Positions 3,583-54,425 of a DNA stretch of 64,000 nucleotides are shown here, piece by piece (within the stretch, counting starts at the first letter, position 1; every line of letters starts with the position of its first letter). The DNA is from Eledone cirrhosa. Lineage: Eukaryota. The notes beneath the pieces are model-generated. The model was not told the origin of the DNA. It saw only the letters and a program-made list of their open reading frames with translations, and made no database searches. The stretch spans positions 305,164,001-305,228,000 of the forward strand of contig OZ024742.1 in NCBI GenBank assembly GCA_964016885.1. The letters are read 5' to 3'. A program made the position numbers and the translations under genes.

Positions 3583-4475
3583 TGAGTGAGATATAGATCG
3601 ATATATATATAGAGATACTGAGAGATATATATAGAGAGAGACTGAAAGATATATAGATCGATAGATGGATAGATATTATACATATATATATATATATATG
3701 TGTGTGTTTATTGATGATAGTTTTATATGTGTTTAAAAATAAACATTTCAACTCATCTAAACATGAAATATATTTCAGTGAAAATGCCCACCAAGCAAAT
3801 AAAAATGAGTTAGGGCCATGACTACAACGTGTATGGGAAAGAAATAGAACAATCTGGATGAATTTTGAATATATAAATTTAAAAGAGATATTTATACATT
3901 ACCTTAATTCGGAGAATAATTTTAGTTATGATGAGTGGGTATAGTTGTCATCTTGTTTTTAAATCAGAGCAAGCCTGCCTCGATGAGCAAAACTAGGATA
4001 ACAAATATTTGATACATTAGAGCAACAGATTACATTATACTGGTGTCATTTATTTTACGATGGGGCCAGTGCTTAGGTGTGCTTAAGCACAGGGCCCCAT
4101 TGGCCCGAAAATTGTTTACCTCCTTCATGGCCCAATTAAGAGGCCTCATAATTTAACTAGCACAGGGCCTTATTTGTCCTAAATGCGACAATGTATGGTC
4201 TGGTTTCCTTTCTCATTGTATTGTTGCTGTTGTTGTTCATTAAGTAATTGAAGAATTCTTGATGATGATGCTTGTATAAGTTTTGATGTTAATGGTAGTT
4301 GTTTTAGCGTCGATTGTAGCTGTGTGGTTGCCCATGATAGATAGTGTGGGCGCTGCACATAGATTTTGATAATGGTATACGACCGTTAGGCAACTGTCCT
4401 CATATCGTTTATTGTTCATCTAATATTCCTTTCCTTTCTACTGCCTGAGATTACACACAAACACCCATAAACGCG

Positions 4476-4510
<35 letters not shown>

Positions 4511-4659
4511 TCTCTCTCTCTCTCTTTCTTACTCTCCCTCTCTCTCTCTATATATATATCTATCTATCTATTTCCCTTCCCCTCTCTCTATCTCTCTCTA
4601 TCTATCTATCTATCGATCTATCTCTCTCTATCTATCTATCTATCTATCTATTTGCACTC

Positions 4660-6004
4660 ACTCAGAAGTGGGCAGAGTGCAAACTGTCCTTGAAAGGTCG
4701 AGCGGAGGTGGCGAACACTTTCATAGCGTCCGTCATCTACTACCGCTTGACTGTCGTGCCTTGTCCCCGTGAACACCTCGCCAAGATGGAACGCATGCTC
4801 TTCCAGTTTCTGTGGAAGAAGCAGGCTCCGCTGGTGAGGAGATCCGTCTGCTGTCAGCACCCTTCCAACGGAGGGCTGGGAATGCCGTGGCTGATGATGC
4901 GCAAACATGCGCTGAGGCTGCGGCATCTCCAGGTATTCCTCACCGACCCCCAACCGGTGTGGGCACCGTTTGTGAGACAGGCTTTCCCACAGCTCGTCTC
5001 GCTAACGGAGCTGCAGTCCTGGGTGAAGAAAAGACCGAAAACGATGGGCGCCTGGCACATTGAATGCGCTCAGGCGCTCACAGTCCTCTGGCAAGCGGGC
5101 GCAGCAATCAGTGGAGACTCCACTTCGACATTCTATAGAGGGATTGTACGTTACAAGGGCGACGACGTGCTCGGAGAGACTCTGGGCGTCGAAGACGATG
5201 AGCTCACCAGTATGTTTGGTAGGACTTTCCGCCCGGGACCTATGGACAACTTCCAGAGGTCCCTGACCTGGCAGTGCTACCGAGGAGCTCTACCGGTTCG
5301 TGACAAGATCTACAGGCACGGACGCCCTGGCAGAGATCCTTCCAAGAGGACGTGTCCAAGATGTGCGCAGGACATTGAAACAGTTCTGCACGCAATTGTA
5401 CACTGCCCGGGCGTAAGCGACCTGTGGAACTATGCAGAACAACTGCTGTCGCGTATGGGACAAATACAGTTGACTGCCGAGTCCATAGTAAGGATCAAAC
5501 CGCCAGACTCTTTCAAAAACGAAAGAGAGGCGGTTTTCCTCTGTACGGTGGCTATGGTGAAAGAAGTTATATGGTGGACGAGGTTGAGAGGACTGAGGAC
5601 AGATGCCTTTCTCTCCGGACAACAATTGATTCCATTCTTTAAGTATCACTTTAGAAGGAGAATCAGGGTGGAGAGAGAGGCACTGCACCCCAGTAAATTT
5701 ACTGAAAGGTGGGTGAATGAAGCGAAAATGGCCCGAGTGATTGGGCCTTCTCTGTTTATAAGCCTGTAGGTTGAGGAAGAGAGCAAAAGGAAGAAAGGAG
5801 CACTTGCACAACACGCTCCTTGAGTTGAGGGTTGTTCTATCGACGGGGTATTAAACAACCCATTTGTGGCGCCTCCCCCCTATTGGGGATTTCGATTGTT
5901 GAAATTGTTTGTTTTTATATTTTTTTTACACGACTGTATGTAAAATCCCCGGCATGTCTTTGTATTATCCCCTTTCTTGTTGCGCCCTTGTGGCTAATAA
6001 AGAA
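4660..6004 (+). mobile_element. Tx1/L1-clade non-LTR retrotransposon, 5'-truncated: ORF2 C-terminus (4660-5769) + 3' UTR
   Basis: WAECKLSLKGRAEVAN, FQFLW, GGLGMP and the zf-RVT CCHC motif CPRC-x8-H-x4-C. Stop at 5769, AATAAA at 5996-6001, (TCTA)n on both sides. Confidence 0.92.
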
Positions 6005-20563: not shown

Positions 20564-20672
20564 TATATATATATATATTTTATGGGTAAATAGTGATTCA
20601 TCTAACCTTAATAAAGTGAATTTTGAAATTGTACTTCAGTATTGAGTACCTTTTACTGTACATACATATATA

Positions 20673-20853
20673 TAGTTTCTACTTTTGGCATAAGGCCAGC
20701 GATTACCCCAGTGCATCACTGGTACTTTATTTTATCGACCTCGTAAGTATGAAAGGCATAATTAACCTCGGTGGATTTGAACTCAGAACGCAAAGGGCTA
20801 TAACTATGCTGCAAAGCATGGTGTCTGACGATCTACCGATTCTGCCGAACCAC
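20673..20853 (-). mobile_element. Nin-domain SINE
   Basis: Matches the SINE consensus. Confidence 0.88.
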
Positions 20854-20883
20854 GGGCCTAACTGATATATATATATATGGGTG

Positions 20884-21607
20884 TGTAAGTATGTATACGC
20901 ACATACATATATGTATACAGACGTACAGAAGTATGTATATACATACATACATGCACATATATATATATATGTACGTATGGATTCACCGAACATTTATTAT
21001 AATGCTCGGTTTGTTTATAAACAAACAGCCCAAATTATTAGCCGTACAGTGTTCGGCAACCATCGCTGCCTTATTTGTTCAACACTGACAAAGGAATGAT
21101 GAAGTAGTTTCTAGCTTACTAGCTGTCATCAGCACCGTATACCTTCCCGTACTAAGAGTGAGAAATGAAATTTCATTTTTTCCATTTATCGTTTTCGGTA
21201 CGCCCGGCCGACTAACTCACTCGATATGCAAATTAGGCTGCTCAGCCGTTAATATGCATGAGGAAAGTATATACTTTCAAAGATTCAATCAACTGACAGG
21301 AGGGTATACAGTGCTGATGACAGCTAATAAGCTAGAAACTAGTTCATCGTTCCTTTGTCAGTGTTGAACAAATAGAGCAGCGATGGTTGCCGAACACTGT
21401 ACGGCTAATAATTCGGGCTGTTTGTTTACAAACAAGCCAAGCATGATAAATGTTCGGCAAACCCATACGTACATATATGTATGTGTGCATGTATGTATGT
21501 ATATACATACTACTGTACGTCTGTATACATATATGTATGTGCGTATACATACTTACATTTAAATATCAGCCGTAATAAGAGTGTGAAATGAAATTTCATT
21601 TTTTTCC

Positions 21608-21613
<6 letters not shown>
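20884..21613 (+). mobile_element. Retrozyme-like fold-back element: arms 20884-21147 / 21299-21557; + strand 21147-21613 is a terminally redundant ~423-bp monomer
   Basis: Inverted arms; 21147-21189 repeated at 21570-21613; HHR at 21311-21347; ATGCAAAT at 21226-21233. Confidence 0.85.
21311..21347 (+). ncRNA. Minimal type I hammerhead ribozyme (mirror copy 21099-21135, minus strand)
   Basis: GUG-CUGAUGA-C-AGCU-AAUA-AGCU-A-GAA-ACUAGU-U|CAU; palindromic stem III ACUAGU. Confidence 0.8.
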
Positions 21614-23289: not shown

Positions 23290-26200
23290 AGCCCGCAACA
23301 GTAAAATCGACAGAAAACACAAGATAAACGACAATATCAGCAACAACGACAACAAGAACATTAACAACAACAAAAACAATAAAACCACTGACAACAGTAA
23401 CAACAACAGCAACAAGGACAAAAACAACAGCAACCTCAACAACAAAAATAACAAAAACAACAGTAGCAACAACAACAACAATAACAAAAACAACAGTAAC
23501 AACAACAGCAACAATGACAAAAACAACATTAAAAACAACAACAACAATAACAATAACAACAGTAACAAGAAGGGCAACAATAACAAAAACAACAGTAACA
23601 ACAACAACAATAACAAAAAAGAACAGTAACAAGAACGGCAACAATGACAAAAACAACAGTAACAACAGCAACAATAACAAAAACAACAGTAACAACAACA
23701 GCAACAATAACGAAAACAACAGTAACAACAACAACAGCAACAATAACAAAAACAACAGTAACGACAACAATAACAATAACAAAAACAACAGTAAAACAAC
23801 AACAACAACAACAATGACAAAAACAACAGTAACAACAACAGTAACAATGAGAAAAACAACAGTAACAACAACAACAACAATGGCAAAGACAACAGTAACA
23901 ACAACAGCAACAATGACAAAAACAACATTAACAACAACAACAACAATAACAATAACAACAGTAACAAGAAGGGCAACAATAACAAAAACAACAGTAACAA
24001 CAACAGCAACAGTAACAACAACAACAATAACAAAAAACAACAGTAACAAGAACGGCAACAATAACAAAAACAACAGTAACAACAGCAACAATAACAAAAA
24101 CAACAGTAACAACAACAGCAACAATAACAAAAACAACAGTAACAACAACAACAGCAACAATAACAAAAACAACAGTAACGACAACAATAACAATAACAAA
24201 AACAACAGTAAAAACAACAACAACAACAACAATGACAAAAACAACAGTAACAACAACAGTAACAATGAGAAAAACAACAGTAACAACAACAACAACAATG
24301 ACAAAAACAACAGTAACAACAACAGCAACAATAACAAAAACAACAGTAACAACAACAACAATAACAAAAACAACAGTAACAACAGCAGCAACAATGACAA
24401 AAACAACAGTAACAACAACAGCAACAGTAACAACAACAACAACAATAACAAAAAGAACTGTAACAACAACAGCAACAATGACAAAAACAACAGTAACAAC
24501 AATAGCAACAATGACAAAAACAACAGTAACAACAACAGCAACAATGACAAAACAACAGTAACAACCACTACAATGACAAAAACAACAGTAACAACAACAA
24601 CAACAATGACAAAAATAACAGTCATAACAACAACAACAATAACAAACACAACAGTAACATCAGCAAAAATAACAAAAACCACAGTAACAACAACAACAGC
24701 AATGACAAAAACAACAGTCATAACAACATCAACAAAAAGAACAGTAACAACAGCAACAATGACAAAAACATCAGTAACAACGACAGCAACAATAACAAAA
24801 ACAACAGTCATAACAACAGCAACAATGACAAAACAACAGTAACAACAACAATAACAAAAACAACAGTAACAACAGCAACAATGACAAAAACAACAGTAAC
24901 AACAAAAGCAACAATAACATAAACAACAGTAACCACAACATCAACAATAACAAAAACAACTGTAACAACAACAGCAACAATGAAAAAAACAACAGTAACA
25001 TAAACAATGACAAAAACAACAGTAACAACAACAACAATGACAAAAACAACAGTCATAACAACAACAACAATAACAAACACAACAGTAACATCAGCAACAA
25101 TAACAAAAACCACAGTAACAACAACAACATTGACAAAAACAACACACATAAAAACAACAACAATAACAAACACAACAGTAACAACAACAGAAACAATAAC
25201 AAAAACAACAGTAACAACAGCAACAATGACGAAAACAACAGTAACAACAACAATAACAAAAACAACAGTAACAACAGCAACAATGACAAAAACAACAGTA
25301 ACAACAGTAACAATGACAAAAACAACAGTAACAACAACAGCAACAATGTCAAAAACAACAGTAACAACAACAGCAACAATGACAAAAACAACAGTATCAA
25401 CAACAGCAACAATGACAAAAACAACAGTAACAACAACAGCAACAATAACATAAACAACAGTAACCACAACATCAACAATAACAAAAACAACTGTAACAAC
25501 AACAGCAAAAACGATAAAAACAACAATAACAACAACAACAATGACAAAACAACAGTAACAATGACAAAAATAACAGTCATAACAGCAACAACAATAACAA
25601 GCAAAACATTAACATCAGCAACAATAATAAAAACCACAGTAACAACAACAACAATAACAAACACAACAGTAACAACAACTGCAACAATAACAAAAACAAC
25701 AGTAACAACAGCAACAATGACAAAAACAACAGTAACAACAACAATAACAAAAACAACAGTAACAACAGCAACAATGACAAAAACAACAGTAACAATAGTA
25801 ACAATGACAAAAACAACAGTAACAACAACAGCAACAATGACAAAAACAACAGTAACAACAACAGCAACAATGTCAAAAACAACAGTAACAACAACAGCAA
25901 CAATGACAAAAACAGCAGTAACAAAAACAGCAAGAATGACAAAAACAACAGTAACAAGAACAGCAACAATGACAAAACCAACAGTGACATCAACAGCAAT
26001 AATAACAAAATCAACAGTAACAACAACAACAACGACAAAAACAATAGTAACAACAACAGCAACAATAAAAAAACAAAAGTAACAACAACAGCAACAATGA
26101 CAAAAACAACAGTAACAACAACAGAAACAATAACAGAAACAACAGTGACAACAACAGCAACAATAACAAAAACAAGAGTAACAACAACAACAATGACAAA

Positions 26201-29200
26201 AAAATCAGTAACAAGAACAACAAGAACAAAAACAACAGTAACAACAACAGCAACAATAACAAAAAAACAGTAACAACAACAACAATAACAAAAACAACTG
26301 TAACAACAACAGCAACAATAACAAAAACAACAGTAACAAGAACAACAAGAATAAAAACAATAGTAACTACAACAGCAACAATAACAAAAACAACAGTAAC
26401 AACAACAGCAACAATGACAAAAACAACAGTAACAACAACAGCAACAATGATAAAAACAACAGTAACAAGAACAAGAACAAAAACCACAGTAACAACAACG
26501 GCAACAATAACAAAAAAACTGTAACAACAACAACAATAACAAAAACAACAGTAACTACAACAGCAACAATAACAAAATCCACAGTAACAACAACAACAAC
26601 AATAACAAAAACAACAGTAACAACAACCACAATAACAAAAACAACGGTAACAACAACAGCAACAATGACAAAAACAACAGTAACAACGACAGTAACAATG
26701 ACAAAAACAACAGTAACAACAACAGCAACTATAACAAAAACAACAGTAACAACAACAACAACAATGAGAAAAACAACAGTAACAACTGCAACAATGACAA
26801 AAACAACAGTAACAACAGCAATAACGAAAAACAACAGTAACAACAACAGCAACAATAACAAAAACAACAGTAAGAACAGCAACAACAATAACATAAACAA
26901 CATTAACAACAGCAACAACAATAACGAAAACAACAGTAACAACAATAGCAACAATAACAAAAACAACAGTAACAACAACAGCAACAATGACAAAAAAGAC
27001 AGTAACAACAGCAACAATAACGAAAAACAATAATCACAACAACAGCAACAATAACAAAAAACAACAGCAACAACAACAGCAACAATAACAAAAACAACAA
27101 TAACAACAACAACAATAACAAAAACAACAGTAACAACAACAGCAACAATAACAAAAAGAACAGTAACAACATCAACAACAATAACAAAAAGAACAGTAAC
27201 AACTACAATAATAACAAAAACAACAGTAACAACAACAGCAACAATAACAAAAACAACAGTAACAACAACAACAATAACAAAAACAACAGTAACAACAACA
27301 GCAACAATAACAAAAACAACAGTAACAACAACAGCAACAATGACAAAAACAACAGTAACAACAACAGCAACAATAACAAGAACGACAGTAAAAACAACAG
27401 CAACAATGATAAAAACAACAGTAACAAAAACAAGAACAAAAACCACAGTAACAACAACGGCAACAATAACAAAAAAACTGTCACAACAACAACAATAACA
27501 AAAACAACAGTAACTACAACAGCAACAATAAGAAAAACAACATTAACAACAACAACAATAACAAAAACAACGGTAACAACAACAGCAACAATGACAAAAA
27601 CAACAGTAACAACGACAGTAACAATGACAAAAACAACAGTAACAACAACAGCAACTATAACAAAAACAACAGTAACAACAACAACAACAATGACAAAAAC
27701 AACAGTAACAACAGCAACAATGACAAAAACAACAGTAACAACAACAATAACGAAAAACGACGGTAACAACAACAGCAACAATAACAAAAACAACAGTAAC
27801 AACAGCAACAACAATAACATAAACAACATTAACAACAGCAACAACAATAACGAAAACAACAGTAACAACAATAGCAACAATAACAAAAACAACAGTAACA
27901 ACAACAGCAACAATGACAAAAACGACAGTAAAAACAGCAACAATAACGAAAAACAATAATCACAACAACAGCAACAATAACAAAAAACAACAGTAACAAC
28001 AACAGCAACAATAACAAAAACAACAATAACAACAACAACAATAACAAAAACAACAGTAACAACTACAGCAACGATGACAAAAACAACAGTAACAACAACA
28101 GCAATAATAACGAAAACAACATAACAACAACAGCAACAATAACAAAACCAACAGTAACAACAACAGCAACAATAACAAAAACAACAGTAACAACAACAGC
28201 AATAATGACAAAAACAACAGTAACAACAACAGCAATAATGAGAAAAACAACAGTAACAACAACAGCAACAATAACAAAAACAACGGTAACAACAATAGCA
28301 ACAATAACAAAAACAACAGTCACAACAACAACAATAACAAAAACAACAGTAACAACAACAGCAACAATAACAAAAACTACAGTAACAACAACAACAATAG
28401 CAAAAGCAACGGCAGCAACAACAGCAACAATAACAAAAACAACAGTAACAAAAACAACAATAACAAAAACAACAGTAACAACAACGGCTACACTGACAAA
28501 TACAACAATAACAACAATAGCAACAATGACAAAAACAACAGTAACAACAACAACAATGACAAAAACAACAGTCACAACAACAACTACAATGACAAAAACA
28601 ACAGTAACAACAACGGCTACACTGACAAATACAACAATAACAACAATAGCAACAATGACAAAAACAACAGTAACAACAACAACAATGACAAAAACAACAG
28701 TCACAACAAGAACAACAATAACAAAAACAACAATAACAACAAGTGCAACAATGACAACAACAACAGTCACAGCAACAACAACAATAACAAAAAACCACAG
28801 TAACAACAATAGCAACAATGACAAAAACAGCAATAACAACAACAGCTACAATGACAAAAACAACAGTAACAACAACAGCAACAATAACAAAAACAAAAGT
28901 AACAACAACAACAACAATGACAAAAACAACAGTAACATCAACAGCAACAATAACAAAAAAAACAGTAACAACAACAACAATGACAAAAACATCAGTAACA
29001 ACAACATCAACAATAACAGAAACAACAGTAATATCAACAGCAACAATGAGAAAAACAACAGTAACAACAACAGCAAAAATAACGAAAAATATACAGTCAC
29101 AACAACAACAACAATAACAAAAACAACAGTAACAACAATAGCAACAATAACAAAAACAACAGTAACAACAGCAACAACAATGACAAAAACAACAGTAACA

Positions 29201-32200
29201 ACAACAACACCAATAACAAAAACAACAGTAACAACAACAACAATAACAAAAACAACAGTAACAACAACAGCAATAATGATAAAAACAACAGTAACAACAA
29301 TAGCAACAATAACAAAAACAACAGTAACAACAACAACAACAATAACAAAAACAACAGTGACAACAACAGCAACAATAATAAAAACAACAGTAACAACAAT
29401 AGCAACAATAACAAAAAAACAGTAACAACAAAAGCAACAATAACAAAAACAACAGTAACAACAACAGCAATAATGAGAAAAACAACAGTAACAACAATAG
29501 CAACAATAACAAAAACAACAGTAACAAAAATAGCAACAATAACAAAAACAACAGTAACAACAACAGCAACAATGACAAAAACAACAGTAACAACAACAAC
29601 AACAATGACAAAAACAACAGTAACAACAGCATCAATAACAAAAACAACAGTAACAACAACAACAATAACAAAACACCAGTAACAACAACAGCAATAAGGA
29701 TAAAAACAACAGTAACAATAATAGCAACAATAACAAAAAACAACAGTAACAACAACAGCAATAATGACAAAAACAACAGTAACAACAACAGCAATAATGA
29801 GAAAAACAACAGTAACAACAACAGCAACAATAACAAAAACAACGGTAACAACAATAGCAACAATAACAAAAACAACAGTCACAACAACAACAATAACAAA
29901 AACAACAGTAACAACAACAGCAACAATAACCAAAACTACAGTAACAACAACAACAATAGCAAAAACAACGGCAGCAACAACAGCAACAATAACAAAAACA
30001 ACAGTAACAACAACAACAATAACAAAAACAACAGTAACAACAACGGCTACACTGACAAATACAACAATAACAACAATAGCAACAATGACAAAAACAACAG
30101 TAACAACAACAACAATGACAAAAACAACAGTCACAACAAGAACAACAATAACAAAAACAACAATAACAACAAGTGCAACAATGACAACAACAACAGTCAC
30201 AGCAACAACAACAATAACAAAAAACAACAGTAACAACAATAGCAACAATGACAAAAACAGCAATAACAACAACAGCTACTATGACAAAATCAACAGTAAC
30301 AACAACAGCAACAATGACAAAACAACAGCAACAATAACAAAAACAACAGTAACAACAACAACAACAATGACAAAAACAACAGTAACATCAACAGCAAAAA
30401 TAACAAAAAAAACAGTCACAACAACAACAATGACAAAAACAACAGTAACAACAACAGCAATAATGATAAAAACAACAGTAACAACAATAGCAACAATAAC
30501 AAAAACAACAGTAACAACAACAACAACAATAACAAAAACAAAAGTAACAACAACAGCAACAATAACAAAAACAACAGTAACAACAGCAACAACAATAACA
30601 AAAACAACAGTAACAACAACAACAATAACAAAAACAACAGTAACAACAACAGCAATAATGATAAAAACAACAGTAACAACAATAGCAACAATAACAAAAA
30701 CAACAGTAACAACAACAACAACAATAACAAAAACAACAGTAACAACAACAGCAACAATAACGAAAAATATACAGTCACAACAACAACAACAATAACAAAA
30801 ACAACAGTAACAACAATAGCAACAATAACAAAAACAACAGTAACAACAGCAACAACAATGACAAAAACAACAGTAACAACAACAACACCAATAAAAAAAA
30901 CAACAGTAACAACAACAACAATAACAAAAACAACAGTAACAACAACAGCAATAATGATAAAAACAACAGTAACAACAATAGCAACAATAACAAAAACAAC
31001 AGTAACAACAACAACAACAATAACAAAAACAACAGTAACAACAACAGCAACAATAATAAAAACAACAGTAACAACAATAGCAACAATAACAATAAAACAG
31101 TAACGACAAAAGCAACAATAACAAAAACAACAGTAACAACAACAGTAACAATGAGAAAAACAACAGTAACAACAATAGCAACAATAACAAAAACAACAGT
31201 AACAAAAATAGCAACAATAACAAAAACAACAGTAACAACAACAGCAACAATGACAAAAACAACAGTAACAACAACAACAATGACAAAAACAATAGTAACA
31301 ACAGCAACAGTAACAAAAACAACAGTAACAACAACAACAATAACAAAACAACACTAACAACAACAGCAATAAGGATAAAAACAACAGTAACAATAATAGC
31401 AACAATAACAAAAACAACAGTAACAACAACAGCAATAATGACAAAAACAACAGTAACAACAACAGCAACAAGGACAAAAACAACAGTAACAACAATAGCA
31501 ACAATAACAAAAACAACAGGAACATCAATAGCAACAATAACAAAGATAACAGTAACAACAACAGCAACAATGACAAAAAACAACAGTAACAACAACAGCA
31601 ACAATGACAAAAACAACAGTAACAACAACAACAATAACAAAAACAACAGTAACAACAACAGCAACAATAACAAAAACAACATTAACACCAACAACAATAA
31701 CAAAAACAACAGTAACAACAACAGCTACGATGACAAAAACAACAATAACATCAATAGCAACAATGACAAAAACAACAGTAACAACAACAGCAACAATAAC
31801 AAAAACAACAGTAACAACAATAGCAACAATGACAAAAACAACAGTCACAACAACAACAACAATAACAAAAACAACAGTAACAACAATAGCAACAATGACA
31901 AAAACAACAGTAACAACAGCAACAACAATAACAAAAACAACAGTAACACCAACAACAACGATAACAAAAACAACAGTAACAACAACAGCAACAATAACAA
32001 AAACAACAATAACAACAATAGCAACAATAACAAAAACAACAGTCACAACAACAACAATAACAAAAACAACAGTAACAACAACAATAACGAAAACAACAGT
32101 AACAACAACAGCAACAATGACAAAAACAACAATAACAACAATAGCAACAATGACAAAAACAACAGTAACAACAGCAACAACAATAACAAAAACAACAGTA

Positions 32201-34900
32201 ACACCAACAACAACAATAACAAAAACAACAGTATCAAATACATCAACAGTAACAAAAACAACAGTAACAACAATAGCAACGATAACAAAAACAACAGTCA
32301 CAACAACAACAATAACAAAAACAACAGTAACAACAACAGCAACAATAACAAAAACAACAGTAACAACAACAACAACAACAATAACGAAAACAACAGTAAC
32401 AACAACAGCAACAATAACAAAAACAACAGTAACAACAATAGCAACAATGACAAAAACAACAGTCACAACAACAACAATGACAAAAACAACAGTCACAACA
32501 ACAACAACAATAACAAAAACAACAGTAACAACAACAGCAACAATAACAAAAACAACAGTAACAACAACAATAACGAAAACAACAGTAACAACAACAGCAA
32601 CAATAACAAAAACAACAGTAACAACAATAGCAACAATGACAAAAACAAGAGTCACAACAACAACAACAATGACAAAAGCAACAACAGCAACAATAACAAA
32701 AACAACAGTAACAACAATAGCAACAATGACAAAAACGACAGTCACAACAACAACAATAACAAAAACAACAGTAACAACAGCAGCAACAATAACAAAAACA
32801 ACAGTAACAACAGCAACAACAATAACAAAAACAACAATAACAACAATAGCAACAATAACAAAAAAACAGTAACAAAATCAACAGTAACAACAACAGCAAC
32901 AATGACAAAAACGACAGTAACAACAACACCAATAACAAAAACAAATGTAACAACAACAACAACAATGACAAAATCCACAGTAACAACAACAACAACAATA
33001 ACAAAGACAACAGTAACAACAACAGCAACAATGACAAAAACAACAGTAACAACAACAGCAATAATGAGAAAAACAACAGTAACAACAACAGCAACAATGA
33101 CAAAAACAACTGTAACAAAAACAACATCAATAACAAAAACAACAGTACCAACAACAGCAACAATAACAAAAACAACAGTAACAACAATAGCAACAATAAT
33201 AAAAACAACAGTCACAACAACAACAATAACTAAAACAACAGTAACAACAACAGCAACAATAACAAAAACTACAGTAACAACAACAATAATAGCAAAAACT
33301 ACAGCAGCAACAACAGCAACAATAACAAAAACAACAGTAACAACAACAACAATAACAAAAACAACAGTAACAATAACAACTACAATGACAAAAACAACAA
33401 TAACAACAATAGCAACACTGACAAAAACAACAGTAACAACAACAGCAACAATAACAAAAACAACAGTAACAACAATAGCAACAATAACAAAAACAACAGT
33501 CACAACAACAACAACAATAACAAAAACAACAGTAACAACAACGGCTACAATGACAAATACAACAATAACAACAATAGCAACAATGACAAAAACAACAGTA
33601 ACAACAACAACAATGACAAAAACAACAGTCACAACAAGAACAACAATAACAAAAACAACATTAACAACAAGTGCAACAATGACAACAACAACAGTCACAG
33701 CAACAACAACAATAACAAAAAACAACAGTAACAACAATAGCAACAATGACAAAAACAGCAATAACAACAACAGCAACAATGACAAAAACAACAGTAACAA
33801 CAACAACAACAATGACAAAACAACAGCAACAATAACAAAAACAACAGTAACAAGAACGGCAACAATGACAAAAACAACAGTAACAACAATAGCAACAATA
33901 ACAAAAACAACAGTAACAACAACAACAATGACAAAAACATCAGTCACAACAACATCAACAATAACAAAAACAACAGTAACAACAACAGCAACAATAACGA
34001 AAAACAACAGTCACAACAACAACAACAATAACAAAAACAACAGTAACAACAATAGCAACAATAACAAAAACAACAGTAACAACAGCAACAACAATAACAA
34101 AAACAACATTTACAACAACAGCAACAATGACAAAAACAACAGTAACAACAACAGCAACAATAACAAAAACAACAGTAACAACAACAGCAACAATAATAAA
34201 AACAACAGTAACAACAATAGCAACAATAACAAAAACAACAGTAACAACAACAACAACAATAACAAAAACAACAGTAACAACAACTGCAACAATAATAAAA
34301 ACAACTGTAACAACAACAGCAACAATGACAAAAACAAGAGTAACAACAACAGCAACAATGACAAATACAACAGTAACAACAACAGCAGCAATGACAAAAA
34401 TAACAGTAACAACAACAGCAACAATGACAAAAATAACAGTAACAACAATAGCAACAATGACAAAAAGAACAGTAACAACAATTGCAACAATGAGAAAAAC
34501 AACAGTAACAACAATAGCAACAATAACAAAACAACAGTAACAACAACAGCAACAATGACAAAAAACAACAGTAACAACAACAGCAACAATGACAAAAACA
34601 ATAGTAAAAACAACAGCAACAATAACAAAAACAACAGTAACAACAACAACAATTGTAACAATAACTACAGCAAAAACGGTCAAAATAACAGATTAGCAAC
34701 ATTAAAAAAAACTGTAAAAACAACAGCAATAACAACAACAACAACAGTAACAAGATCGAAGACAACAGCAATAACAACAACAGTAACAAGATCAAAAACA
34801 ACAGGAACAACAACAACAAGATCAAAAACAACAGTAACAACAATAGCAACAATGACAAAAACAACAGTAACAACAACAATATTAACAAAAACAACAACAA
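23290..34900. repeat. 11.6-kb (AAC)-derived satellite, 27-33-bp unit ACAATAACAAAAACAACAGTAACAACAACAGCA, with higher-order duplications
   Basis: Direct inspection; paralogous ORF starts offset by 926 (26665/27591), 1559 (28205/29764) and 1678 bp (29473/31151). Confidence 0.95.
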
Positions 34901-35098: not shown

Positions 35099-35794
35099 AT
35101 AATTGTTTCTACTTTTTGGCACAAGGCCAGCAAATACGCAGTGTATTACTGGTACTTTATTTTATCGACAATACTTTATATATGGATAATTGTTTCTACT
35201 TTAGGCACAAGGCCAGCAAATAACCAGTGTATTACTGGTACTTTATTTTATCGACAATACTTTATATATAGATAATTGTTTCTACTTTAGGCACAAGGCC
35301 AGCAAATAACCAGTGTATTACTGGTACTTTAATTTATCGACAATACTTTATATATGGATAATTGTTTCTACTTTAGGCACAAGGCCAGCAAATAGCCAGT
35401 GTATTACTGGTACTTTATTTTATCGACAATACTTTATATATGGATAATTGTTTCTACTTTAGGCACAAGGCCAGCAAATAGCCAGTGTATTACTGGTACT
35501 TTATTCTATCGACAATACTTTATATATGGATAATTGTTTCTACTTTAGGCACAAGGCCAGCAAATAGCCAGTGTATTACTGGTACTTTATTTTATCGACA
35601 ATATTTTATATATGGATAATTGTTTCTACTTTAGGCACAAGGCCAGCAAATAGCCAGTGTATTACTGGTACTTTATTTTATCGACAATACTTTATATATG
35701 GATAATTGTTTCTACTTTAGGCACAAGGCCAGCAAATAGCCAGTGTATTACTGGTACTTTATTTTATCGACAATACTTTATATATGGATAATTG
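35099..35794. repeat. 86-bp minisatellite (8 copies) derived from the SINE 3' end
   Basis: ataattgtttctac at 35099, 35186, 35272, 35358, 35444, 35530, 35616 and 35702. Confidence 0.95.
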
Positions 35795-35836
35795 ATAGAG
35801 GAACAGACAAATAGATAGATTAAAATGAAACAAGAC

Positions 35837-36485
35837 ATAATTGTTTCTACTTTTGGCACAAGGCCAGTAATTTCCAGTGCATTACTGGTACTTTATTTTA
35901 TCGACCCCCGTAAGGATGAAAGGCAAAGTTAACCTCGGCGGGATTTGAACTCAAAATGGCAAGGGCCGTAACTCTATGCGTCAAAGGATGGCGTCCGACC
36001 CTCTACCGATACTGCCAATCCACCGCCCTTACCGCCATTAATAATTGTTTCTACTTTAGGCACAAGGCCAGCAATCACTCAGTGCATTACTGGTATTTTA
36101 TTTTATCAACCCCGTAAGGATGAAAGGCAAAGTCAACCTCGGCGGGATTTGAACTCAGATCGTAAAGGGACGTAACTATGCTGGAAAGCATGGTGTCTGA
36201 CCCTTATAATAATAATGCTTTCTTAATAATAATAATAATTGTTTCTACTTTTGGCAAAAGGCCAGCAATTATCCTAGTGTATTACTGGTACTTTATTTTA
36301 TCGACCCCCGAAAGGATGAAAATCAATGTTAACCTCGGTGAGGTTTGAACTCAGAATGGCAAGGGCCGTAACTCTATGCATCAAAGCATGGCATCCGACC
36401 CTTCATTACTGGTACTTTATTTTATCGACTCCGTAAAGGGACGTAACTCTATGCTGAAAATCATGGCGTCCGACCCTGTACTGAT
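35837..36485 (-). mobile_element. Tandem cluster of Nin-domain SINEs (35837-36027, 36040-36203, 36235-36401, fragment to ~36485)
   Basis: Repeated SINE consensus, all in the same orientation. Confidence 0.9.
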
Positions 36486-52809: not shown

Positions 52810-53228
52810 AACAAAGGGGATAGTCAATTTGTTGGTAATTCAACAAATATAAATGTCTATAGCTGATTCAGAGCACTTGACAGATTTTCTGGAGTATCAA
52901 TGATATTAAATAAATGGAAACTTTATTTATAAAACCATATTTATTCTATTATATATATTTCAAGGGTACCAAAACTTTGGTACTCTCTCATCAGATAGAA
53001 TACAAAGTTTGTTTTATAAATTTTGACATAACTAAAAAAAGATACCTTAACGGTAATAAAAACTTGAACCGTTAAGGTATCTTTTCTTGGTTATGTCAAA
53101 ATTTATAAAACAAACTTTGTATTCTATCTGATGAGAGAGTACCAAAGTTTTGGTACCCTTGAAATATATATAATAGAATAAATATGGTTTTATAAATATA
53201 GTTTCCATCCATTTATTTAATATCATTG
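52809..53228 (-). mobile_element. Family-B-related fold-back element: tail 52809-52897, arms 52898-53054 / 53068-53228
   Basis: Inverted arms; minus-strand tail atactccagaaaa...gtcaagtgc matches the 22.57-kb tail. Confidence 0.9.
53120..53180 (+). ncRNA. Type I hammerhead ribozyme (mirror copy 52942-53002, minus strand)
   Basis: UAUUCUAU-CUGAUGA-GAGAGUACCAAA/UUUGGUACCCUU-GAA-AUAUAUAU-A|AUAGAAUA; intact core and 8-bp stem I. Confidence 0.9.
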
Positions 53229-53249
53229 TATATATATATATATATATAA

Positions 53250-54425
53250 TCCAACAAACCCTCACAATGAACCCTACAGTAACAAAATGCGGAAGACCCA
53301 ACTGTGGCATATGCATATATCTAATAGAAGGTTCAACATTCCATTTTAAACAAGGACAGCGTTTCACAGTTAAACACAACTTTACATGTGCATCTGAAAA
53401 CCTAATCTATGTTTTGACCTGCTCAGATTGTCAAGAGCACTACATAGGACAGACAAAAAACAGCCTCCGTCAACGTATGACAGTCCACAAATCACAAATT
53501 AAAATACAGGAATACAGAAAGATTGCATTTAGGAACATATCGTCAATTGTGCTCACAACCAACATACAAACTTTAAAATTTTCCCCATTTACAAAATCAT
53601 AGACAACGCTACTTTCATCCAACGCATGAATAAGGAAACATATTTCATTAACAAATTCCAACCTCTACTTAATGCTCTAAAAATCGGACCAATCTAAAAC
53701 TGCAACAAACAATCAAACATTTACAAAAGTTACCTCCCTCACACCCTACCTAATCCTTTTTCTTAAATAAATTAAATATCATCCAGCAAGAATTGCTTCC
53801 CCCTGCATATTAACTCTCTAAAAAGGGAAATCATATCAAACCTCAGTCCACCATTTGCCTCCATCGTGGAATCATGGATCAACTAAGTACTCTTGCTATA
53901 TTAACACATTTTGATCTGCTTAACTTCAAGAACTATGCCTGTAAATAACATTATTTTTTCTTCCACGTTGACTTTTTATGCTCTACATTATGTCCGTTTT
54001 CTTTTTCTTTTTTCTTCTTTTCTTTTTTTCTTTTTTTTTCTTTTTTTTTCTTTTTTTCTTTTTTTCTTTTTTTCTTTTTTTTCTTTTTTTCTTTTTTTCT
54101 TTTTTTCTTTTTTCTTTTTTTTCTTTTTTCTTTTTTCTTTTTTCTTTTTTCTTTTTTCTTTTTTCTTTTTTTCTTTTTTCTTTTCACTTCATAAACCTTA
54201 TTTCTAAATAACATTATTCTTTCTACACCTTCTCTTTAACATGTGTGATACCACACTAATACATTTCACTATCATTTGATAATGCATAAAAATGCTGAAA
54301 CCGGTAATAGACAATTATTAAATATATAAATAGATAAATAAATGCCATTGTTAAATAATAAATAAATCAACTAATACCTTAACACTTCACACAAAGTAAA
54401 ACATTTCGTTTTAATCATTTTCTAA
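53250..54425 (+). mobile_element. Penelope-like element (Neptune-type) 3' fragment: Cys-rich linker + GIY-YIG endonuclease (to stop at 53697, one frameshift ~53530) + 3' region
   Basis: CGRPNCGIC...FTCASENLIYVLTCSDCQEHYIGQT..SLRQRMTVH, then EHIVNC...RMNKETYFINKFQPLLN. Decayed HHR-like ttgataa-tgcat/atgct-GAAACCGGT-A|atag at 54269-54310. Confidence 0.88.
53997..54185. repeat. (T5-8C)n polypyrimidine tract
   Basis: Direct inspection. Confidence 0.95.

Follow-up and report, generated by a model that had tools for sequence, protein, structure and literature searches.

Metazoan non-LTR retrozymes, as described in coral, mussel and axolotl, are non-coding units, a few hundred bp long, with low GC content, each bearing a canonical type I hammerhead ribozyme (HHR), and they range from dispersed monomers to long tandems; their circular RNA, which has been demonstrated, is predicted to be highly self-paired (Cervera and de la Pena, 2020, PMC7229834). 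Unit length is given as about 150–450 bp, and as up to 972 in a preprint that proposes non-LTR retrozymes to be non-autonomous derivatives of Penelope-like elements (PLEs), mainly for vertebrates and on the basis of co-occurrence and pseudo-LTR trees (bioRxiv 10.64898/2026.07.22.740005). A 2020 review describes metazoan retrozymes as seemingly without promoters (PMC7761336), and exceptions are on record: Schistosoma repeats with a Pol III promoter, and newt satellite 2, whose snRNA-type promoter is used by Pol II (PMC6765202; PMC2220036). PMC10886601 has no bearing on the promoter question. The SM-alpha HHR repeats of Schistosoma have a Pol III-type promoter upstream of the HHR and depend on a tandem arrangement so that the promoter of one unit transcribes the next (via PMC6765202), and in the tandem HHR repeat of newt satellite 2, stem III is weak and palindromic and an snRNA-type promoter lies within the repeat (cited in PMC2220036 and PMC6765202). 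PLE copies have a tail at one end, an adjacent inverted 5′-truncated copy and partial tandems (Craig, 2021, PMC8557442), the tail being defined by two internal reverse-transcription start sites (Frangieh, 2024, PMC11167929); they also carry HHRs and are found at AT-rich or microsatellite targets (PMC8557442; PMC11167929).

Here, we describe an insertion at 20884–21613 of a 64,000-nucleotide stretch of Eledone cirrhosa DNA, hereafter called the window. It is a non-LTR retrozyme of the ordinary class with clean insertion-end evidence, and it resembles the described metazoan retrozymes in its low-GC (37%) non-coding unit, its HHR, its range of arrangements and its predicted circle. It differs from them in that a host U6-type element and a TATA box precede the HHR; moreover, circular RNA has been demonstrated for those retrozymes and is hypothetical for the present family, which consists mostly of partial tandems. 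It shares with PLEs all the features of insertion listed above, but the unit has no ORF for RT or GIY-YIG and is thus not an autonomous PLE, its HHR is canonical rather than minimal, and its tail is about 45 nt (longer in a sister family). With newt satellite 2 it shares the weak palindromic stem III and an snRNA-type promoter element, and with SM-alpha a candidate Pol III-type promoter upstream of the HHR, together with the need for a tandem arrangement in which one unit would transcribe the next. The class of element is known, and the U6-type promoter feature is the new addition: a search of the literature, with supplements, subscription papers and Repbase/Dfam outside its scope, turned up neither such a promoter in any retrozyme nor a mention of these families.

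Structure of the insertion

The insertion, which is flanked by (TA)6 and (TA)18, comprises a non-coding unit of 423 bp with a type I HHR, together with a terminal repeat of 44 bp and an inverted arm of 267 bp. The direct repeat (21147–21189 versus 21570–21613) is identical at 41 of 44 columns with a spacing of 423, and the stretch 21296–21557 recurs reverse-complemented at 20884–21150 over 267 columns with 91% identity, which bears out the original prediction of a terminally redundant, circularly permuted HHR monomer of about 423 nt. The complete monomer of what we call family A occupies 21147–21569 on the plus strand in a circularly permuted register. In the family majority sequence, GC content is 0.37 and the ORFs are short, the longest from an ATG being 42 aa in sense and 68 aa in antisense. 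No LTR, PBS or PPT is evident in the unit, as judged from its anatomy alone.

On the plus strand, the unit begins with a first copy of the tail (21147–21189), including a hairpin and a T6 run (21176–21181) that may be a Pol III terminator. It is followed by a 12-mer (21225–21236), which contains the predicted octamer at 21226–21233, and, 31 nt after the 12-mer, by the equally predicted TATA-like sequence GTATATAC at 21267–21274; the octamer by itself is unremarkable, occurring three times in the window when both strands are counted. Transcription would start at about 21298–21303, within a predicted extended stem I (21292–21362) that surrounds the ribozyme (21308–21350). Further downstream, an AT-rich self-complementary hairpin (21460–21558) lies immediately upstream of a 3′ end that we call T1, and the stretch from T1 to a second 3′ end, T2 (21559–21613), corresponds to a PLE-type tail, the insertion ending at T2 beside (TA)18. 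The inverted arm (20884–21150, minus strand) is a 5′-truncated copy covering unit positions ~150–411, which ends at the tail-less 3′ end T1 and whose HHR has decayed. The window copy has only one sense HHR.

Other repeats occur in the window. An 11.5-kb CAA-rich tandem array with a period of 33/66 bp extends over 23341–34900, and tandem arrays (86 and 204 bp) of a SINE-like sequence, which also flanks the retrozyme at ~20670–20860, lie at 35099–36403. A 432-aa open frame at 4471–5769 has a weak zf-RVT match below the cut-off and is likely a LINE fragment.

The hammerhead ribozyme

The HHR core consists of CTGATGA at 21314 and GAAA at 21335, and the triplet GUU places the predicted cleavage after 21344. 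An Rfam scan gave nothing at the gathering score; support for the HHR comes instead from covariation with sister families. Between family A and its sister family B, both partners differ in 5 of the 13 base pairs, whereas the core does not vary in A, A2 or B; in this set of five sequences from two lineages, pairing is 94%, compared with at most 47% in slid controls. Stem I has 6 bp, stem II 4–5 bp (4 bp in the window copy) and stem III 1–2 bp with a palindromic loop. Such a geometry is that of the canonical type I HHR of metazoans, which acts as a dimer, and not the minimal form of PLEs (PMC4209133; PMC7229834).

The window copy has one mismatch in stem I, position 21310 being A instead of the G found in most copies, and its own ribozyme is likely to be weakened by it. 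The HHR fold lies 2.5 kcal/mol above the MFE in the majority sequence and 4.2 kcal/mol above it in the window copy, and, modelled as circles, the monomers are predicted to be highly paired (z −7.8 and −10.3). In Anolis PAc an ORF starts at an ATG within the core of the HHR; a counterpart here was considered and rejected, being short and, by eye, unconserved between A and B.

Four other HHR-like motifs occur in the window (6497, 19960/20131, 22346/22457 and 52994/53128), three of which are inverted pairs in long hairpins. The one at 53128 sits just before a GIY-YIG ORF fragment (53177–53599), and the 20131 type recurs in GIY-YIG loci elsewhere in the genome; all four are likely PLE remnants.

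Family members and their arrangement

The assembly searched represents an animal genome of 3.0 Gb. An exact 31-mer of the HHR gave 831 matches, and the spacer and the HHR arm used as queries gave 1,122 and 2,415 first-look candidates, respectively, the family being dispersed over many contigs. Family A segments are 96% identical to the majority sequence (69 segments). The tail runs on into the spacer in many of the 60 best-match loci, so the unit is a retrozyme-type monomer joined head to tail, as had been proposed, and the opposing possibility of local duplication only fails. Most copies are partial tandems, the longer ones including a locus of ~2.4 units (L026), a continuous tandem of 1,145 bp (L288) and pairs of HHRs on the same strand. 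No continuation into a coding PLE was found among the mapped family A loci, so that the spacer does not appear as part of a long coding body, which was the other circumstance raised against the original prediction.

Family B is 63% identical to A, has a unit of 461–469 bp and gives 3,244 HHR pattern matches. Its arrays reach 30 units, but in the long ones variants are shared at periodic intervals, which points to unequal exchange that reshaped them after insertion; therefore, long arrays were dropped as proof of rolling-circle copying. One family B copy (L101:1–620) adjoins a U1 tandem array at an assembly gap.

Insertion ends and the mobilizing enzyme

What inserts such a unit into the genome? 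A 29-mer located downstream of the cut site gave 391 matches, and the ends of family A copies were surveyed at 70 loci taken from the first 100 of these; removal of 4 duplicate loci, likewise left out of the counts of segment identity, arm variants and 12-mer conservation, left 66 loci with 86 anchored segments. The 3′ ends of these segments fall at T1 in 35 cases (unit position 405–420), at T2 in another 35 (positions 33–43 of the next unit) and elsewhere in 16. T1 and T2 are thus two fixed 3′ ends ~45 nt apart, and AT-rich or (TA)n DNA borders 52 of the 70 ends of these two kinds. Head-to-head inversions occur in 33 of the 66 loci. At all 17 junctions where both outer ends can be classified, T1 is paired with T2, never T1 with T1 or T2 with T2 (17 further junctions with an unclassifiable end were left out of this count); if the ends were independent, the chance would be about 1 in 100,000 (0.5^17). 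The same pairing is seen in family B at 7 of the 7 loci with both ends called, and the window copy also follows the rule. In addition, its two arms share a variant present in none of 81 other segments, so the inverted arm derives from the same template, in agreement with the original prediction.

Fixed and paired ends, inversions, partial tandems and (TA)n targets together are the signature of a PLE (PMC8557442; PMC11167929), and we hold it to be highly probable that this non-coding HHR unit has been mobilized by one. The genome is rich in PLEs, with 10,596 GIY-YIG candidates and long ORFs in which RT and GIY-YIG occur together. In 50 of 150 scored GIY-YIG loci from among these candidates, no autonomous PLE sharing the tail or the HHR was found, a difference from PLEs as described (PMC8557442; PMC11167929); the copies of families A and B met there were separate insertions. 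Long RT and GIY-YIG ORFs of PLEs (938 and 1,096 aa, stop to stop) are present at L103, L104 and L105, and the near-identity of L103 to L104 suggests that their PLE family was active recently.

The template for copying

In the same 86-segment census, the 5′ ends are scattered: 4 lie near the cut site versus 3.5 expected, and 1 lies near the predicted transcription start versus 3.2 expected. The left arm of the window copy ends almost exactly at the predicted start, which we regard as a coincidence, as 1 of 68 at-risk segments does so. Altogether, 71 of the 86 segments extend beyond the cleavage site and 42 are longer than one unit, which rules out as the template both a cleaved linear monomer copied through to the end and the primary transcript alone. 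The earlier proposal of copying from a circular or concatemeric RNA therefore holds insofar as the template exceeds one cleaved monomer, but the tail is in itself no sign of a circle because it is the tail that PLEs generally have between their two start sites of reverse transcription.

These data would fit a circle, a multimer left uncleaved or template jumps of high precision, and DNA sequence does not distinguish between the first two. For one PLE, unprocessed RNA was the main substrate in vitro (Frangieh et al., PMC11167929), which weakens the need for a circle, and we consider the case for a circular intermediate to be evenly balanced. Reads across the cleavage-site junction, a check that had been suggested, would not discriminate, since a ligated circle should read like a genomic tandem.

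A U6-type promoter element upstream of the ribozyme

In the host, three U6 loci that are independent of one another carry a motif TATG[CG][AT]AAT[TG]AG at −77 to −79 and GTATA at −31, as do RNase MRP and the best U6atac locus. Left out of this count were likely pseudogenes (the U6 matches L166 and L167, and 5 of 6 U6atac matches, where the motif is absent from this position) and 5 of 11 copies of the C19 U6 array with a SINE inserted in the promoter. The 12-mer of the retrozyme unit matches the one at −78 of U6 locus L154 at 12 of 12 positions and nothing else in the window matches the U6-type motif of the host, the chance of such a match being ~4e-4 per unit. It is absent from U1, U2 and RNase P (0 of 8 loci), of which U1 and U2 carry instead a TCAGT motif near −60, in addition to a TATA-like sequence near −30. 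The original prediction had likened the octamer to the one in the snRNA-type promoter of newt satellite 2, but a newt-type distal enhancer can be rejected: no fixed octamer was found in the 12 U1 and 3 U2 loci examined, and the octamer belongs instead to a proximal element of the U6/U6atac/MRP type beside the TATA box. The octamer of newt satellite 2 is said to be a distal element, and the promoter of SM-alpha reportedly consists of tRNA-like A and B boxes, unlike the external U6-type promoter seen here.

Further observations were made on the host genes. The RNase P gene (L323) has the U1/U2-type TCAGT motif and no U6-type 12-mer, which hints at transcription by Pol II. A distal CCTCCCTT-type element lies near −260 to −290 of U1 (L091–L102), U2 (L295–L298), two U6 loci (L153–L154) and RNase P. 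In the C19 U6 array (L159–L165), the insertion in 5 of the 11 fetched copies is SINE-like, lies between the TATA box and +1 and is accompanied by a short duplication.

Conservation of the element had been suggested as a check. The 12-mer is kept exactly in family B despite the 63% overall identity, but within family A it is kept in 44 of 61 copies and ranks 84th of 299 12-mers, barely above the others, which is to be expected of neutrally decaying copies. A genome-wide search for the pattern 12-mer, TATA and CTGAWGA gave 19,150 matches versus 0 for the reversed pattern, and yielded further families: C (1,302 matches), D, F and E (84 matches). These were recruited by a pattern that contains the 12-mer but does not require a full HHR, and a full HHR follows the pattern in 14 of 22 cases in C, 4 of 4 in D/F and 1 of 20 in E, versus 4 of 3000 in the null. 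Outside low-complexity DNA, neither C nor E resembles A. At least three families beyond A and B thus have the 12-mer, followed downstream by a TATA box and an HHR.

The gap between 12-mer and TATA box is 31 nt in the window copy and 31–32 nt in families A, B and C, versus 35–37 nt in host U6, U6atac and MRP; it is thus 4–6 nt shorter in the retrozymes, only family E having 36. The spacing within snRNA promoters is known to matter in flies. The first run of four or more T lies ~300 nt past the predicted start (P = 0.13 and 0.09 for the lack of such runs in the predicted transcript), and the T runs of the family A monomer are confined to the tail and just after it, a layout that weakly fits a Pol III unit and in which the T6 run should stop much of the Pol III read-through. 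We judge a working internal promoter to be likely and, given such a promoter, its use by Pol III rather than Pol II to be nearly as likely.

If the short-spaced 12-mer recruited Pol II, the T runs would be no barrier to the same element mobilized in the same way by a PLE. This alternative would account for the spacing, which falls below that of host Pol III genes, and for propagation, which requires read-through of the T6 run; newt satellite 2, reportedly transcribed by Pol II, provides a precedent (cited in PMC2220036 and PMC6765202), and in this animal a TATA-like sequence likewise lies near −30 of U1 and U2. We nevertheless think it unlikely, because the 12-mer is of the type shared by U6, U6atac and MRP and because the T runs of family A fall just in and after the tail. 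Slightly less probable still is that the unit, as a retrozyme or mini-PLE, is expressed solely by read-through from host or PLE promoters, which is the prevailing model (PMC7761336), the 12-mer then being a relic of ancestral capture or the site of another factor. The lack of a 5′-end peak at the predicted start and a spacing unlike that of host genes agree with it, as does the fact that no distal element of the kind common to U1, U2 and U6 was spotted by eye in the unit; however, it leaves unexplained why the order and near-constant spacing of 12-mer, TATA box and HHR are kept across families that are dissimilar outside low-complexity DNA, while the four other HHRs of the window have no 12-mer (4–5 mismatches). 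The idea that the unit is nothing more than a satellite amplified in place or the pseudo-LTR of some long coding PLE, without an RNA cycle of its own, which the HHRs, tails and inversions of PLE pseudo-LTRs, the unequal exchange in long arrays and the 2026 preprint deriving retrozymes from pseudo-LTRs (bioRxiv 10.64898/2026.07.22.740005) might recommend, is largely refuted and very improbable in view of the tail–spacer–HHR–tail order at many dispersed loci with up to 1,145 bp of continuous tandem, the unit without ORF, the canonical HHR, and copies on many contigs with fresh T1/T2 ends.

Proposed life cycle and implications

We consider it probable, on balance, that family A is a non-LTR retrozyme likely transcribed from its own copy of a U6-type promoter, with self-cleavage predicted to occur in the dimer, and likely inserted by a Penelope-like RT/endonuclease. 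An outline of such a cycle would be as follows: initially, the 12-mer and TATA box of an upstream unit would direct transcription, most likely by Pol III, from the 5′ strand of the HHR stem onwards. The T5–T6 run in the tail would end most of these transcripts, whereas RNAs that read through it would carry the promoter of the next unit. Paired HHRs would then release unit-length RNA, which may circularize. The PLE protein would nick both (TA)n strands and prime at the internal sites T1 and T2, and a circle or multimer would be copied for a random length, producing partial tandems and head-to-head inversions. Such copying would restore the promoter upstream of the HHR, and in this way an external promoter could travel with the element.

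A U6-type external promoter is normally lost on retrotransposition. More tentatively, at somewhat below even chances, these elements may represent a SINE-like class in which hammerhead cleavage and permutation, circular or tandem, make a U6-type (type 3, external) Pol III promoter heritable and a PLE does the copying, and of which several unrelated families exist in one genome (~19,000 sites with promoter and HHR core). As a by-product, the U6 promoter motif of this animal has been defined, which is useful for guide-RNA expression. For animal retrozymes in general, both transcription and the mobilizing enzyme have been open questions, PLEs having been proposed from co-occurrence and pseudo-LTR similarity. 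The present families offer an answer to both at the level of sequence: a promoter element copied from the host U6 class, and PLE ends with two start sites that are paired without exception wherever they can be classified.
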